Sequence record: OX090893
Reading direction: 5' to 3' (one strand)
Source of the DNA: Escherichia phage vB_Eco_PATM
Length of the DNA stretch: 64,000 nt
Part shown: one piece after another, positions 3,343 through 25,217 of the stretch
Numbering within the stretch: position 1 is the stretch's first letter
How the letters are laid out: each line of letters opens with the position of its first letter
Program-made: the position numbers and the translations under genes
Notes under the pieces: generated by a model
Told to the model about the DNA's origin: nothing
Seen by the model: the letters and a program-made list of their open reading frames with translations, nothing else
Databases searched by the model: none

Positions 3343-3753
3343 TTAGAATTCAGAATCATCATCTCGTGATGGATCATGTTCATTTCCGAAGTCTTCCATT
3401 TTGATATGAGAGCTACCCCAACCTGTAAAATCTTCTTCTCCAAAGTGCAAAATATCTACACCTTGATAGATTCGCTTATATTTATAGTCTTGTCGAACTG
3501 GGAAAGTATACAATGTAGTATTTGCAAACACCACACGTCGATTGTTGTTACTACGAATATTAACACCACGTTCTACTGTATAATGTCCATCGGTAGACAT
3601 ACCAAGCATTACTAATGCTGCTCGCAATGTAGTGTTATGATACTCGTGAGGAATTTTTCCTCCGTGTTTTTTAGCCATTTCTTTCCAGATCGGTGTAGCC
3701 TTAATGGTAGACATACTTACGGTCGCCCAAATGGTTGTATTAATTAGTGACAT
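3343..3753 (-). CDS. Hypothetical protein (136 aa)
   Basis: ORF with sigma70-like promoter upstream on minus strand (3805-3833). Confidence 0.45.
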   Translation of the reverse strand: MSLINTTIWATVSMSTIKATPIWKEMAKKHGGKIPHEYHNTTLRAALVMLGMSTDGHYTVERGVNIRSNNNRRVVFANTTLYTFPVRQDYKYKRIYQGVDILHFGEEDFTGWGSSHIKMEDFGNEHDPSRDDDSEF

Positions 3754-21486: not shown

Positions 21487-21515
21487 AAGCACAAGTTAAA
21501 CAAAAGGAGAAAACT

Positions 21516-21782
21516 ATGACAGAAAATACTTATGGTAAAGAATTGATTGAGAAGCACGTATTGATTGATAATAAAGGTGGAGCAATCTTTCTTTTTGATC
21601 CTGAATCAGTTCTTACTGAAAACGAAAATGGTAGCGTTAGCCTTAAAACAGAAAGTTTGGTAATTGACTTCCTTGCTCTTCTGGATGAAATGGGGCTTCC
21701 TCACGAAGAAGAAGCAGCTATTGCTTTGATTACAGTTCTTCTGGAGAAACGCGAAGCTGGTGAAATGACCCAGTATGCTTAA
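21516..21782 (+). CDS. Hypothetical protein (88 aa)
   Basis: ORF with RBS AAGGAG; ends immediately before the first tRNA. Confidence 0.45.
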   Translation: MTENTYGKELIEKHVLIDNKGGAIFLFDPESVLTENENGSVSLKTESLVIDFLALLDEMGLPHEEEAAIALITVLLEKREAGEMTQYA

Positions 21783-21789
21783 TATTCAA

Positions 21790-21865
21790 GGTTCCATAGC
21801 TCACTGACGAGAGCGCACACCTCATAAGTGTCGAGGGCAGGGATTGTAACCCTGGGGAACCACCA
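21790..21865 (+). tRNA. tRNA, anticodon CAT (Met/Ile2-type), atypical T-loop
   Basis: Hand-folded cloverleaf: acceptor GGTTCCA/GGGAACC, D-stem GCTC/GAGC, anticodon loop CTCATAA, encoded CCA; T-loop ATTGTAA is non-canonical. Confidence 0.55.
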
Positions 21866-21896
21866 TTTAAAAGGAGGTGCTATGCATCTCCTATAT

Positions 21897-21982
21897 GCAA
21901 GTGTGGTGGAATTGGTGATACACATTGTGCTTAAAACGCAACGCTTAAATGCTTGAGGGTTCGAATCCCTCCACTTGCACCA
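21897..21982 (+). tRNA. tRNA-Leu (anticodon TAA)
   Basis: Acceptor GCAAGTG/CACTTGC, anticodon loop CTTAAAA, long variable arm, T-arm GAGGGTTCGAATCCCTC, encoded ACCA. Confidence 0.75.
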
Positions 21983-21984
21983 AC

Positions 21985-22090
21985 GCCTAGTAGGGTATTT
22001 GGTAATTCCGAGGCCATCAAAGCCTGAAAAATATGTTAGACCACTTTGTCTAACTAAATACGAAATATGGTTCGATTCCATAACTAGGCT
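21985..22090 (+). tRNA. Atypical tRNA-like element (106 nt; perfect acceptor and T-arm but about 30 nt extra internal sequence)
   Basis: Acceptor GCCTAGT/ACTAGGC and T-arm TATGG-TTCGATT-CCATA are canonical, but the interior has a 7-bp hairpin GTTAGAC-N6-GTCTAAC and no clean anticodon arm; no encoded CCA. Confidence 0.35.
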
Positions 22091-22124
22091 TCAATTTAAA
22101 TAATAATTTTTTAGTAAAAATATC

Positions 22125-22153
22125 TTGACATTTACTTAGTTTTTTGTTATAGT
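22125..22153 (+). promoter_or_regulatory. Sigma70-like promoter (TTGACA-17-TATAGT)
   Basis: Near-consensus hexamers 11 nt upstream of the next tRNA-like gene. Confidence 0.55.
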
Positions 22154-22164
22154 TACTGTGAAAA

Positions 22165-22246
22165 CGGGGTGTATCTCACCTGACTTCTAATCAGGCGTTA
22201 ACCGAGTAATTGGAGTATGCAGGTTCGAATCCTGTCACCCCGACCA
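22165..22246 (+). tRNA. Atypical tRNA-like gene, anticodon loop CTTCTAA (TCT, Arg-like); D-arm not foldable by eye
   Basis: Acceptor CGGGGTG/CACCCCG, perfect anticodon arm CCTGA-CTTCTAA-TCAGG, T-arm GCAGG-TTCGAAT-CCTGT, encoded CCA; only 7 nt between acceptor and anticodon stem, 23 nt variable region. Confidence 0.4.
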
Positions 22247-22310
22247 AAAAAGTTTTAAAAACTACTTGACAAGCAAGATAGTTTTATGTTAGATTTAAAG
22301 TATGATAACG

Positions 22311-22400
22311 GGAAGGTAGGGCGCAGCGGTGCGCAACCAGGTTTGAACCCTGGCCCATTGTAGCGATACGGTGATGGTTCGACTCCATTATCTTCCTCCA
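22311..22400 (+). tRNA. tRNA-Ser (anticodon TGA)
   Basis: Acceptor GGAAGGT/ATCTTCC, anticodon arm CCAGG-TTTGAAC-CCTGG, long variable arm, encoded CCA. Confidence 0.75.
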
Positions 22401-22418
22401 AATTCGCTTAGGAGCTTT

Positions 22419-22571
22419 ATGAATTATAAAACTATTGGACAGGTTGTTACCGGAGTTAAGATTGTAAATAATAAAGTTGTTTATGAGTATTCTAATCTTC
22501 AACAATCTGAAGATGGTAAGAATATTCGTATGGTAAAATCAGAACAAAAAGATTCCGGTTGTTTTGAATAA
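22419..22571 (+). CDS. Small hypothetical protein (50 aa) between tRNA genes
   Basis: ATG at 22419 preceded by RBS AGGAG; the longer ORF-track version starts inside the tRNA. Confidence 0.3.
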   Translation: MNYKTIGQVVTGVKIVNNKVVYEYSNLQQSEDGKNIRMVKSEQKDSGCFE

Positions 22572-22579
22572 TTAAGAAC

Positions 22580-22665
22580 GGTAGATTGGTGAAATGGTAG
22601 CCACAACAGTTTGCTAAACTGTCGTCGGAAACGGCGTGTAGGTTCAAGTCCTACATCTACCGCCA
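22580..22665 (+). tRNA. tRNA-Ser (anticodon GCT)
   Basis: Acceptor GGTAGAT/ATCTACC, anticodon arm ACAGT-TTGCTAA-ACTGT, long variable arm, T-arm GTAGG-TTCAAGT-CCTAC, encoded CCA. Confidence 0.75.
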
Positions 22666-22715
22666 AGTTATCTTTAATGTAGCTTGTTGCTCTTAGTTGC
22701 TTGGTGTAACTTTTT

Positions 22716-22790
22716 GGAAGGATGGCTGCAACCATCTTACTTTAATAGAGTAAACTTTCGGCAGATGGCCCCCACCATCTTACCGATACC
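22716..22790 (+). repeat. Two related hairpins sharing CCATCTTAC (GGATGG-CTGCAA-CCATCTTAC and AGATGG-CCCCCA-CCATCTTAC)
   Basis: Seen directly in the inter-tRNA spacer; function unknown. Confidence 0.4.
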
Positions 22791-22835
22791 TCATAGTTAG
22801 TGGTGCGAACACTGGCTATTTTAAAGATAATTTAT

Positions 22836-22911
22836 ACATCGTTAGCTTAGTTGGTAGAGCAAGGGGCTTTTAACTCCAAGGTCGAAGGTTCGAATCCTTC
22901 ACGATGTACCA
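22836..22911 (+). tRNA. tRNA-Lys (anticodon TTT)
   Basis: Acceptor ACATCGT/ACGATGT, D-loop AGTTGGTA, anticodon loop CTTTTAA, T-arm GAAGG-TTCGAAT-CCTTC, encoded CCA. Confidence 0.7.
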
Positions 22912-22916
22912 AACAC

Positions 22917-23003
22917 GTAGGTATCGCATAGCGGCAATTGCTGGAGACTGTAAATCTCCTGCCCTTCGGGGCTTCGTTGGTTCGAGTCCAACTACCTGCA
23001 CCA
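22917..23003 (+). tRNA. tRNA-Tyr (anticodon GTA)
   Basis: Acceptor GTAGGTA/TACCTGC, anticodon arm GGAGA-CTGTAAA-TCTCC, long variable arm, encoded CCA. Confidence 0.7.
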
Positions 23004-23010
23004 AATTAAA

Positions 23011-23095
23011 GATGGATTGGCCTAGTGGTTGGGCGACGGACTGTTAATCCGTGAACGAAAGTTCTAGCAAGGTTCAAATCCTTGATCCATCGCCA
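23011..23095 (+). tRNA. tRNA with anticodon GTT (Asn) and an unusually long hairpin variable arm
   Basis: Acceptor GATGGAT/ATCCATC, anticodon arm ACGGA-CTGTTAA-TCCGT, variable hairpin GAAC-GAAA-GTTC, T-arm CAAGG-TTCAAAT-CCTTG, encoded CCA. Confidence 0.5.
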
Positions 23096-23099
23096 AATA

Positions 23100-23167
23100 G
23101 TGCTTGTAGAGTTAATAGAAACCTCTAGAATTTTCTAGAATTGTAGGTATCAAATCCTACCAAGCAA
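23100..23167 (+). pseudogene. Degenerate tRNA-like element (anticodon arm replaced by the palindrome TCTAGAATTTTCTAGA)
   Basis: Acceptor-like TGCTTG/CAAGCA, D-stem AGAG/CTCT and a T-arm-like GTAGG-TATCAAAT-CCTAC, but the central hairpin has a 4-nt loop and no anticodon loop; no CCA. Confidence 0.3.
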
Positions 23168-23174
23168 ATATTTT

Positions 23175-23249
23175 GCTCCTATCGTATAACGGCTATTACG
23201 GTTGCCTTGTAAGCAACTTATCAGGGTTCGAGTCCTTGTGGGAGCACCA
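23175..23249 (+). tRNA. tRNA-Thr (anticodon TGT)
   Basis: Acceptor GCTCCTA/TGGGAGC, anticodon arm GTTGC-CTTGTAA-GCAAC, T-arm CAGGG-TTCGAGT-CCTTG, encoded CCA. Confidence 0.7.
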
Positions 23250-23270
23250 ATTTAACTCTAAAGGAGTGTA

Positions 23271-23595
23271 TGTGACAGAAAAAGAGTTAGAGAAATATTT
23301 TAATATCAATGTTTTCGATGGTTTTGATGATATTGAAGATGTTGAAAGATATTATGAAGTAGAGTTAGATAAGGATAACATTGTAATTCTTTCTGCCACT
23401 TATGATTGTGCATATTATGAAGGTGAATCTCACGTTTATTTTTATGATATGAAAACATCTTTGTTTTATGAAGTACACGCATATCATTGTTCTTGTTATG
23501 GTTTAGAAGGTCAGTGGGAACCTGAAGAAATAGGTGATTTGGACTTTACTATTGCATATCTAAACAGACGTGGTGCATCTACTATTTTAAAATAA
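23271..23595 (+). CDS. Hypothetical protein (about 108 aa) inside the tRNA island; probable GTG start
   Basis: RBS AAGGAG then GTG at 23271; the longer ORF-track version starts inside tRNA-Thr. Confidence 0.4.
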
Positions 23596-23609
23596 ATATC
23601 AAAAGCCTC

Positions 23610-23639
23610 TTGACAAAGGGGCTAATAATATGTTAGAGT
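23610..23639 (+). promoter_or_regulatory. Sigma70-like promoter (TTGACA-18-TAGAGT)
   Basis: Hexamers upstream of tRNA-Gly. Confidence 0.45.
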
Positions 23640-23650
23640 AATATTGTTAA

Positions 23651-23725
23651 GCGGGTATAGTGTTAATGGTAGCATATGAGGTTTCCACCCTCCAGGTGCA
23701 GGTTCAAGTCCTGTTACTCGCTCCA
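23651..23725 (+). tRNA. tRNA-Gly (anticodon TCC)
   Basis: Acceptor GCGGGTA/TACTCGC, anticodon loop TTTCCAC, T-arm GCAGG-TTCAAGT-CCTGT, encoded CCA. Confidence 0.7.
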
Positions 23726-23824
23726 AGATTATTTAAATGGAATCGCTAGAGAAAATTTCTCTTTTCGCTCATGGTTTTCTCCTTCAAACTCTAGCGGTTC
23801 TTTTTAAGTGATTTTTAGTTTTAT

Positions 23825-23899
23825 TGGAGATTAGCCTAGTGGGAAGGCAACGGCCTTTGAAGTCGTGATGACTAGGTTCGATTCCTAGATCTCCAGCCA
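23825..23899 (+). tRNA. tRNA-Gln (anticodon TTG)
   Basis: Acceptor TGGAGAT/ATCTCCA, anticodon arm ACGGC-CTTTGAA-GTCGT, T-arm CTAGG-TTCGATT-CCTAG, encoded CCA. Confidence 0.7.
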
Positions 23900-23941
23900 A
23901 TTAATTGCATAGCATGAGTATTTCTCATTGGTTAAAAGGAG

Positions 23942-24307
23942 ATGCAAGTGAATTGTGAACATTGTGGTAGTGAGTTTACTTTGATAAAAGGTCATGGTGG
24001 ACAAAACAGATCATACTGTTACACTTGTATTCCAGAAGGTTTAGATAAACAAGTACGCACAAGATTACATCAAGAGCTTAGAAGAGAGCGATCTCATAAG
24101 ATGAAACTTGATTTAGGTTGCAAAGTGTGTGGTTATGCTAAATGTGCAGTAGCACTAGAATGGCATCACCCAGAGGACGATAAGAAACACGATCCATCAA
24201 ATGCAATCAAAAGATCTTGGTCTGCTTACTTAGAAGAGACTGAAAAGTGTATCTTACTGTGTGCCAATTGTCATAGAGAAGTACATGCTGGTCTTATACA
24301 GGTTTAA
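23942..24307 (+). CDS. HNH homing-endonuclease-like protein embedded in the tRNA cluster
   Basis: 121 aa; N-terminal CEHCG zinc finger; HNH core LEWHHPEDDKKHDPSNAIKR ... LLCANCHREVH; RBS AAAGGAG upstream; stop abuts tRNA-Pro. Confidence 0.75.
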   Translation: MQVNCEHCGSEFTLIKGHGGQNRSYCYTCIPEGLDKQVRTRLHQELRRERSHKMKLDLGCKVCGYAKCAVALEWHHPEDDKKHDPSNAIKRSWSAYLEETEKCILLCANCHREVHAGLIQV

Positions 24308-24308
24308 T

Positions 24309-24384
24309 CAGTGCGTAGCGCAGTTGGTAGCGTGGGAGCCTTGGACGCTTCAGGTCGCAGGTTCGAGTCCTGCCGCACTGACCA
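24309..24384 (+). tRNA. tRNA-Pro (anticodon TGG)
   Basis: Acceptor CAGTGCG/CGCACTG, D-arm GCGC-AGTTGGTA-GCGT, anticodon arm GGAGC-CTTGGAC-GCTTC, T-arm GCAGG-TTCGAGT-CCTGC, encoded CCA. Confidence 0.75.
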
Positions 24385-24389
24385 AATTT

Positions 24390-24464
24390 GCAGAGATAGC
24401 TGAGACGGATTAGTGCTACCCTGAAAAGGTAGAAAGGATGGATCGTTACCATCTCTCTGCACCA
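24390..24464 (+). tRNA. tRNA-Phe (anticodon GAA), atypical T-loop
   Basis: Acceptor GCAGAGA/TCTCTGC, anticodon arm CTACC-CTGAAAA-GGTAG, T-arm GATGG-ATCGTTA-CCATC, encoded CCA. Confidence 0.6.
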
Positions 24465-24541
24465 AATAACACCATCCAAGGAGTAGACTTGGTTAACTGT
24501 CAATAGCACATTGAGGCTTCTTACAGTGGTGTACTTATTAT

Positions 24542-24626
24542 GGCTAAGTGGTGGAATGGTATACACGATACGCTTAGAACGTATTGCCCCAGGGGATTGT
24601 GAGTTCGAGTCTCACCTTAGCTACCA
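24542..24626 (+). tRNA. tRNA-Leu (anticodon TAG)
   Basis: Acceptor GGCTAAG/CTTAGCT, anticodon arm ATACG-CTTAGAA-CGTAT, variable hairpin CCCC-A-GGGG, T-arm GTGAG-TTCGAGT-CTCAC, encoded CCA. Confidence 0.75.
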
Positions 24627-24714
24627 TATCTAAGAGATATCATAGGGTTTGCAACGGATATCCACCGTCCTATTAAGGATACCACGCCAAGACGGGTTGT
24701 AAAGGGTTAGCCAT

Positions 24715-24790
24715 TGATAGTGTGAAGCTGGCGTTTCGAGTGCTTTCATAAGGCATTGCGAGAAGAGTTCGATTCTCTTACTATCAACCA
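24715..24790 (+). tRNA. tRNA with anticodon CAT (Met/Ile2-type)
   Basis: Acceptor TGATAGT/ACTATCA, anticodon arm GTGCT-TTCATAA-GGCAT with wobble pairs, T-arm AAGAG-TTCGATT-CTCTT, encoded CCA. Confidence 0.55.
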
Positions 24791-24805
24791 AATTATTACA
24801 GATTG

Positions 24806-24884
24806 TGCGGGATAGAGGAGTCTGGTCGTCCTCGCCAGTTTCATATGCTGGAGATCATCGGTTCGAATCCGATTCCCGCCTCCA
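24806..24884 (+). tRNA. tRNA with anticodon CAT and unpaired 1:72 position (initiator-like)
   Basis: Acceptor TGCGGGA/TCCCGCC with mismatch at the first pair, D-arm GAGG/CCTC, anticodon arm CCAGT-TTCATAT-GCTGG, T-arm ATCGG-TTCGAAT-CCGAT, encoded CCA. Confidence 0.5.
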
Positions 24885-24942
24885 ATAAATACCTCCCTTC
24901 TGGTGTAATGATTAAGTTACATTGACACTTCAAGGAACTCAT

Positions 24943-25025
24943 AGCCGGGTAGATTTAAAAGAGTATGGTACTCAATATGGCTCCAAACCATAGATCAGGG
25001 GGTTCGATTCCTCACCTTGCTGCCA
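24943..25025 (+). tRNA. tRNA-Trp-like (anticodon CCA), irregular acceptor/D region
   Basis: Clear anticodon arm TATGG-CTCCAAA-CCATA and T-arm GGGGG-TTCGATT-CCTCA with encoded CCA; 5' acceptor only pairs 6 of 7 and D-region is long; start coordinate approximate. Confidence 0.4.
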
Positions 25026-25030
25026 ATTAT

Positions 25031-25106
25031 TGTGGTATCGTACAGATGGTTAGTACACTCGACCGATAATCGAGAAACAACGGTTCGACTCCGTTTACCA
25101 CGACCA
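25031..25106 (+). tRNA. tRNA-Ile (anticodon GAT)
   Basis: Acceptor TGTGGTA/TACCACG, anticodon arm CTCGA-CCGATAA-TCGAG, T-arm AACGG-TTCGACT-CCGTT, encoded CCA. Confidence 0.6.
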
Positions 25107-25217
25107 AACTCCGTGCCAGCGGTGTCTTCGAAGAACAAGCCTAGTTCCTTCTGAGATGGAGGGGTGCGACTCCTTAACGCACAACATACTACTACTAAAT
25201 ACTTATCAGGAGATATC

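Follow-up and report, generated by a model that had tools for sequence, protein, structure and literature searches.

A probable free-standing HNH homing endonuclease gene at the 5' edge of tRNA-Pro(UGG) in the tRNA array of a phi92-like coliphage

Why a small HNH gene should be located within a phage tRNA array, its stop codon a single nucleotide from the next tRNA, is the question raised by the locus analyzed here. The window, a stretch of 64,000 nt from Escherichia phage vB_Eco_PATM (record OX090893), belongs to Justusliebigvirus, the phi92-like E. coli myoviruses within Stephanstirmvirinae. The sequence comparisons described below suggest, with a probability of roughly 0.7, that the ORF encodes a homing endonuclease and is a free-standing gene of this type (HEG), carried as an optional cassette of approximately 402 nt at the 5' edge of tRNA-Pro(UGG). 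The coordinates of the features are collected in Table 1.

Table 1. Features at and around the insert, in positions of the window.
Feature	Position	Strand	Basis and remarks
tRNA array, 16 genes	21790-25106	+	ARAGORN
Sigma-70-like promoter, TTGACA-18-TAGAGT with TG (extended -10)	23610-23639	+	consensus scan, 10/12; pattern match only
tRNA-Gln(UUG), encoded CCA, left boundary of insert	23825-23899	+	ARAGORN; Rfam RF00005, 61.4 bits
Leader of insert, 48 nt	23900-23947	+	Shine-Dalgarno AGGAG at 23937-23941
HNH ORF	23942-24307	+	ORF list; 121 aa counted from ATG
HNH endonuclease gene, most likely extent	23948-24307	+	119 aa from GTG; alternative ATG 23942 gives 121 aa
Single T between stop codon and tRNA-Pro	24308	+	position -1 of RNase P site
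tRNA-Pro(UGG), right boundary of insert	24309-24384	+	ARAGORN, Rfam
First terminator-like hairpin 3' of insert	25498-25522	+	pattern match only

Two candidate start codons are present in the ORF. The sequence AGGAG abuts ATG 23942 with a spacing of 0 and is located 6 nt ahead of GTG 23948. The GTG-aligned position, with the sequence M-x-C, is the start of most homologues in an alignment of 35 full-length relatives (alignment A2), and GTG is also the start annotated by RefSeq in phage VEcB. Judging from the spacing, the homologue starts and the RefSeq annotation, the start is most likely GTG 23948 rather than ATG 23942, giving a predicted product of 119 aa. The preliminary description of a 121-aa HNH gene with its own ribosome binding site inside the tRNA array can therefore be retained for the ORF, its HNH identity, its location and the presence of AGGAG, but the length is probably that of the shorter product, and the binding site fits the GTG and not the ATG. 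The distance of 1 nt between stop codon and tRNA-Pro was described correctly: TAA at 24305-24307 is followed by T24308 and then by the first base of the tRNA. Because 172 homologues were found in the protein database (E ≤ 1e-5) and 59 cluster representatives in metagenomes (E ≤ 1e-30; 10,364 at E ≤ 1e-10), the ORF is judged by homology not to be a chance ORF. No HNH paralogue was found elsewhere in the window. Regarding the leader, a hairpin occluding the ribosome binding site was considered, in which the minimum free energy structure pairs GUAUUUCU with AGGAGAUG, but the fold is no better than that of shuffled sequences (z = -0.12) and gives the hairpin no support. An origin of the leader as a relic of the 5' half of tRNA-Pro was also rejected, local alignments with tRNA-Pro, tRNA-Gln, and the leaders of relatives scoring no higher than those of shuffled sequences (p = 0.17-0.88).

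Members of the HNH superfamily are marked by a catalytic His and a metal-binding His/Asn on a beta-beta-alpha element, with two flanking CxxC pairs of zinc ligands. In the protein studied here, alignment A2 displays an N-terminal zinc ribbon (CxxC-x17-CxxC, residues 3-27) with a GGxNR motif, followed by a C-terminal HNH core consisting of C58xxC61, H73-H74, C105xxC108-H109, and H113. The motif conserved in the homologues is CxxC...EWHH...CxNCHRExH. Residues C58, C61, H73, H74, C105, C108, and H109 are invariant across the 35 sequences, N107 and H113 are kept in at least 90% of them, and every invariant catalytic residue and zinc ligand is present in the full-length ORF of the window. The strongest profile match is PHROG 2255, annotated 'HNH endonuclease' (E = 7.5e-22), together with PHROGs 3106 (E = 2.7e-16) and 35854 (E = 4.9e-14). 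Pfam PF01844 scored 12.4 bits against a cut-off of 21.4 (E = 0.18), which is below the gathering threshold, and the match covers only the final CxxCH..H stretch; a precomputed PF01844 match is present in two homologues. In the AF2 model (pLDDT 92), strands at 70-73 and 102-105 are followed by a helix at 106-113, that is, a strand-strand-helix arrangement at the C-terminus. The best fold matches of the model were HNH nucleases, at scores that are not statistically significant in the structure search, and the sole match in a PDB sequence search was the HNH motif of McrA. By profile and conserved residues, the protein is thus predicted to be a member of the HNH (His-Me finger) nuclease superfamily.

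The gene had initially been regarded as a free-standing mobile HNH, and a comparison of the tRNA cluster across related phages had been proposed. For this comparison, a 201-nt probe spanning the empty Gln-Pro junction was used, and 55 phage records were matched. The 198 records of a first megablast overstate the denominator, most of them being T5-like or other phages that share only the 78-nt tRNA-Pro. The junction is empty in 50 of the 55 records, consisting of tRNA-Gln-CCA, a 7-nt spacer (AGATTTA), and tRNA-Pro, whereas the insert is present in five (ALITA, ZYD, OZ035773, and two VEcB records). At the filled site, 409 nt separate the two tRNAs, the boundaries are clean, and the cassette is composed of the leader with its Shine-Dalgarno sequence, the ORF, TAA, and T. 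The gene is thus not a constant feature of this site among the relatives. Furthermore, the best match to the 24-kb backbone, outra (99.1% identity), is without the HNH gene, whereas VEcB, which contains it, is only 98.1% identical to the window over 24 kb, so that presence of the gene is incongruent with backbone relatedness. The presence/absence polymorphism of near-identical genomes at this locus, the incongruent distribution, and the equivalent tRNA sites found in unrelated phage families, as described below, are all properties of a HEG and agree with the mobility first proposed. Two observations count against it. The GC and GC3 values of the gene equal those of the genome, and the gene has therefore not recently arrived from a compositionally different source. 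No clean co-conversion tract was found around the insert in an alignment of six genomes, in which the flank markers are mosaic.

The tRNA content of the array is itself highly mosaic among near-identical phages. A 164-nt segment (24623-24786) that includes most of the tRNA-Met at 24715-24790 is absent from ALITA and VEcB, and array content therefore differs among genomes that are 98-99% identical. In phi92, PD06, muut, and others, an insert of approximately 330 nt is located between tRNA-Gly and tRNA-Gln (L003 1627-2057), at the position of 23726-23824 in the window, which is without it. That insert carries a 42-aa ORF annotated 'lysis inhibition; accessory protein' (Phi92_gp113).

The size of the protein and the neighborhood of the array also bring to mind a domesticated accessory HNH that aids the terminase in DNA packaging, of the HK97 gp74 type, rather than a selfish mobile gene. 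Packaging HNHs are likewise small, at approximately 120 aa. Terminase genes are located 0.3-3 kb downstream both in the window (TerL, 26907-28991) and in several relatives (terS in L005, TerL in L012, L014, and L016, GpA in L020), and a packaging HNH has been invoked in Justusliebigvirus papers (PMC12210895). However, 50 of the 55 records, that of phi92 among them, do without the gene at this site, and packaging therefore cannot require it. Between it and TerL lie 2.6 kb with five tRNAs and four ORFs, so that neither the universal conservation nor the terminase adjacency of the gp74-like class is found here. That the terminase is nearby follows from where the tRNA array is located, and relatives inserted within tRNA genes display the behavior of a mobile element. 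A role in packaging thus appears extremely improbable. The TerL ORF contains an insertion of its own, approximately 159 aa long, within Walker A (aa 43-201; 27033-27509), reading YGGAAG / CVSAETEYLTRDGW ... HIFVTGN / SGKS. The ends of this insertion look intein-like, with Cys1, a TxxH-like block, and a C-terminal Asn followed by Ser; Pfam Terminase_6N begins only at TerL aa 201, and the insertion matches a PhoH-like PHROG (E = 2.3e-13). The same 694-aa TerL is present in all Justusliebigviruses checked. An intein is not supported, searches of Pfam and PDB having given no intein match.

Relatives of the HNH gene were analyzed at approximately 100 loci, obtained by tblastn against phages, from the protein database, by exact-protein look-ups of contigs, and by an IMG/VR scan. 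Full-length relatives with 44-80% identity are almost always located inside tRNA arrays, on the tRNA strand. Their hosts are Klebsiella Mydovirus (Vequintavirinae), an N4-like Klebsiella phage (Schitoviridae), 50-kb Vibrio phages, an Erwinia phage, a Bacillus anthracis phage, T5-like Salmonella phages (Demerecviridae), and many metagenomic contigs. At 14 of 22 non-redundant loci with at least 44% identity, the gene is associated with tRNA-Pro(UGG). Nine of the 14 abut the 5' end of this tRNA, with gaps of +1 (four loci), 0 (one), -10 (three), and +45 (one, with a remnant between); two others are directly 3' of it, two are inside it, and the last has a Pro-like 3' fragment behind it. A sub-branch of the clade abuts tRNA-Ala(UGC). 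The TAA+T junction ahead of tRNA-Pro is found again in relatives of the Mydovirus lineage (L004, L013, and L015). Within the wider family (32-62% identity), a same-strand tRNA starts between -37 and +22 nt from the stop codon at 21 of 80 IMG/VR loci. A recurrent arrangement is that the ORF continues through the tRNA's 5' acceptor strand and has its stop codon at tRNA positions 8-10, in most cases the TAG of U8-A9-G10 (L008, L009, L016, L026, L053, L087, L089, and L104). In such cases, RNase P cleavage would strip the stop codon from the mRNA.

Several further observations concern these junctions. In Proteus phage Mydo (L114 1-207), a different annotated HNH of 145 aa ends 1 nt before tRNA-Asp, the same succession of stop codon, one nucleotide, and tRNA as in the window. 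L012, a metagenomic relative of 151 kb, has an 80%-identical HNH in the same slot between Gln and Pro, and a 45-nt 'minihelix' (3361-3405) lies between the HNH stop codon and the intact tRNA-Pro. It is composed of the acceptor stem, T arm, and CCA of tRNA-Pro, the D and anticodon arms being missing, and may represent a break-repair footprint or a processing signal. Over 78 nt, the tRNA-Pro(UGG) of the window is approximately 97% identical to that of many T5-like siphoviruses and some Klebsiella phages; the tRNA-Pro of T5 itself differs from it. Such identity between the myovirus of the window and these phages suggests that tRNA genes have been exchanged between phage families. In literature searches, neither the 119-aa clade nor any insertion of an HNH gene into tRNA-Pro was found described.

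The most direct view of insertion is provided by pairs of filled and empty sites. In Vibrio phage WD615 (L005 1108-1545), an HNH of 60% identity splits tRNA-Pro into a 5' part of 46 nt and a 3' part of 28 nt, and the sister phage BA6 (L111 609-685) has an intact 77-nt tRNA-Pro at the same place. The variable loop GGGTC has lost GTC, positions 46-48, in whose stead the 364-nt insert stands. Similarly, a 376-nt insert in Klebsiella phage KpCHEMY26 (L006 2447-2878; 56% identity) replaces positions 42-45 of a tRNA-Pro, the intact form of which is present in its sister MY01 (L112 597-673), and no other tRNA-Pro was found in the KpCHEMY26 array. In both inserts the Shine-Dalgarno sequence is placed at the position of the variable loop. 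These split tRNAs were established by direct comparison with the sister phages that are without the HNH, an in-silico splicing grid combined with ARAGORN being too noisy, with chimeric calls that drew in the adjacent intact tRNA. The ORF fills nearly the whole of each insert, and there is therefore no room for a ribozyme. The two tRNA-Pro genes are probably disrupted genes rather than introns, inactivated and not spliced. For the window, an intron-encoded HEG was rejected: the ORF is intergenic, and an Rfam search of 21500-25600 at E ≤ 0.01 returned tRNAs only and no other RNA family. Insertion beside an intact tRNA-Pro is found in Mydovirus VLCpiM5a and two metagenomic relatives, where Shine-Dalgarno sequence, ORF, TAA, and T are located between a conserved spacer and tRNA-Pro; in AV124, a Mydovirus without the HNH, the same spacer abuts the tRNA. 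Three further lineages have filled and empty pairs at tRNA-Pro.

The cleavage target, which the preliminary description had left open, can be narrowed by these comparisons. Given the 14 of 22 loci at tRNA-Pro(UGG) and the variable-loop insertions opposite intact sister tRNAs, the nuclease probably targets the tRNA-Pro gene or its 5' boundary. Since the insert destroys the Gln-Pro spacer, a recognition site spanning the spacer would confer self-immunity. Within Justusliebigvirus, allele counts and the six-genome alignment demonstrate that tRNA-Pro is polymorphic at 24340, 24346, and 24352, corresponding to tRNA positions 32, 38, and 44. All five records with the HNH have the allele C32/C38/A44. 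Approximately 24 of the 50 empty records have T32/T38/G44, and the rest share the allele of the HNH-containing records. The T/T/G allele gives the variable loop GGGTC, that of the invaded tRNAs as they are seen in BA6 and MY01. As a hint to the target, the allele bias of the HNH-containing records is suggestive only, p being approximately 0.04 on the assumption of independent records, which these are not. Because tRNA-Pro is identical in the HNH-containing genomes and in about half of those without the gene, a target wholly inside tRNA-Pro would need additional determinants.

The sharing of this allele by many genomes without the HNH would be expected after loss of the gene and, together with the rarity of the gene in the genus, could imply that the ORF is an inactive relic: a once-mobile HNH, now non-cleaving, that is drifting to loss late in the homing cycle. 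The HNH allele of VEcB, with four non-synonymous changes and one synonymous change, is also in keeping with this, and the non-synonymous changes could reflect decay in the VEcB lineage. On the other hand, the ZYD allele is identical to that of the window, and ALITA differs by three synonymous changes only. The ORF of the window has retained its full length and, as noted above, its catalytic and zinc residues, and the Shine-Dalgarno sequence and start context are preserved. We consider a relic very unlikely.

Regarding expression, the promoter-like sequence is located just ahead of tRNA-Gly; a promoter scan gave no match within the 48-nt leader, and a pattern scan found no terminator-like hairpin between the HNH gene and 25498. 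A transcript carrying tRNA-Gly, tRNA-Gln, HNH, tRNA-Pro, and further tRNAs likely starts at this promoter-like sequence, and the hairpin is the probable end of the transcription unit. The simplest reading of the HNH ORF is that it belongs to a polycistronic tRNA precursor. With the gene inside the tRNA unit, a promoter-like sequence before tRNA-Gly and no terminator-like site until 25498, its expression is probably coupled to the processing of the tRNAs, and the link suggested in the preliminary description is plausible. RNase P presumably cuts between T24308 and C24309, so that the mRNA would end 1 nt past the stop codon. The gene would be transcribed solely within the tRNA precursor, maturation of the 3' end of tRNA-Gln would set the 5' end of the mRNA, and RNase P cleavage at tRNA-Pro would free it. 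Release from the precursor probably limits the expression of the HNH to a low level, a view already put forward for segB of T4 and the hegs of T5. In the array as a whole, an Rfam tRNA-like match at 22165-22243 (40 bits) has no ARAGORN call, and the tRNA-Met genes called by ARAGORN at 21790-21865 and 24715-24790 are missing from the Rfam hits at E ≤ 0.01.

For the free-standing HEG, the following course of events is proposed. During mixed infection, the enzyme would cut or nick genomes without the HNH, either within the tRNA-Pro gene or beside it, the candidate cut sites being the Gln-Pro spacer with the 5' end of tRNA-Pro, or the anticodon/variable-loop region. Repair by recombination from the HNH-containing genome would then copy the cassette, with the flanking conserved tRNA genes serving as homology arms. 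The HEG might additionally be kept for a benefit to the phage, its breaks driving exchange of tRNA genes or segmental amplification, as with SegB of T4/T6, and so evading host defenses that target tRNAs. SegB homologues are significantly co-localized with tRNAs and drive tRNA amplification (PMC13096335). The HNH family is likewise embedded in tRNA arrays, the array of these phages is mosaic, and the remnant in L012 is a partial duplicate of tRNA-Pro. Against this, ARAGORN found no amplified or duplicated tRNA in the window, and a frequency of 5 in 55 records does not suggest a strong advantage; moreover, nothing in this analysis tells such a benefit apart from purely selfish spread. Retention for phage benefit is accordingly considered rather unlikely.

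A broader reading of the clade, to which we give slightly less than even odds, is that the 119-aa zinc-ribbon-HNH proteins form a homing lineage specialized on tRNA-Pro(UGG), for which conserved phage tRNA genes would be the sites recognized and, at the same time, homology arms that travel with it, jumping between unrelated phage families and driving turnover of the tRNA repertoire. The phages concerned may be those of Stephanstirmvirinae and Vequintavirinae and N4-like, T5-like, Vibrio, and Bacillus phages. The cassette may be placed at tRNA position -1, with its stop codon at or inside the RNase P site, or may split the tRNA at the variable loop.

Taken alone, the insert is a routine selfish phage nuclease gene, and it accounts for one indel among therapeutic-candidate coliphages that are 98-99% identical. 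The family is of wider interest, consisting of compact, uncharacterized 119-aa HNH enzymes whose insertion sites point to a defined target, tRNA-Pro(UGG). Natural pairs of filled and empty alleles exist in at least three phage lineages, and this target is therefore directly testable. The family also provides an HNH counterpart to the recently described association of SegB with tRNAs, and suggests a route by which recombination comes to be concentrated in tRNA arrays, as hot spots, and by which tRNA genes come to be shared between unrelated phages. Three points are worth following: the specificity for tRNA-Pro shown by the clade, its insertions into the variable loop, and the location of the stop codon at the RNase P site or inside it.

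Among known systems, the HNH packaging proteins of the HK97 gp74 type resemble the present protein in size and HNH core and are often near terminase genes. Genes of this type (Kala et al. 2014, cited in PMC12210895) are conserved at the cos end, where they are required beside terS/terL, whereas the HNH of the window is inside a tRNA array and optional. The HNH HEGs of the T4 MobE and I-HmuI type share with it the HNH chemistry, a sporadic distribution, and a site next to or within a conserved target gene. Enzymes of this type spread by break repair, are approximately 170-230 aa long with extended DNA-binding modules, and have protein-coding targets (nrd, DNA polymerase). They are free-standing or intron-borne; the Rfam search indicates no intron at the locus studied here. 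Closer parallels are found in T5, where F-TflI along with F-TflII and F-TflIV (hegA, hegC, and hegD) are also free-standing members of the HNH superfamily located inside a tRNA array on the tRNA strand. Their 3' ends abut or overlap the next tRNA, by 14 nt for hegC and 23 nt for hegD in the T5 annotation, an overlap like that noted above for loci of the wider HNH family, and their expression has been proposed to be limited by tRNA processing (PMC2330249). According to the annotation, however, the T5 proteins are 193-227 aa long with NUMOD-type modules, in contrast to 119 aa with a CxxC..CxxC zinc ribbon. Membership of the F-Tfl family was rejected, the similarity being at the level of motifs only (best tblastn E of 0.12 in the T5 tRNA region; hhalign probabilities, 28% and 16%), and no member of the 119-aa clade was found in T5 itself.

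T4 SegB is likewise a free-standing HEG in a tRNA cluster, and the close relatives T2L, RB1, and RB3 are without it (PMC2330249). Part of the site that it recognizes is a motif conserved in tRNAs, the T-psi-C stem-loop, and it spreads along with neighboring tRNA genes; maturation of tRNA-Arg cuts segB directly after the last sense codon, ahead of the stop codon (PMC2330249). SegB is associated with tRNAs across many phages with no preference of tRNA isotype, and its homologues can amplify tRNA genes to evade defenses (PMC13096335), a benefit that by analogy is possible for the HNH of the window. SegB differs in having a GIY-YIG fold, in its larger size, and in being experimentally characterized. 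Unlike SegB, the clade studied here is biased to tRNA-Pro(UGG), with a sub-branch at tRNA-Ala(UGC). By analogy, the element of the window would work as the HEGs of the T4 and T5 tRNA regions do; its kind is already known, and the bias of the 119-aa clade towards tRNA-Pro is the notable part.
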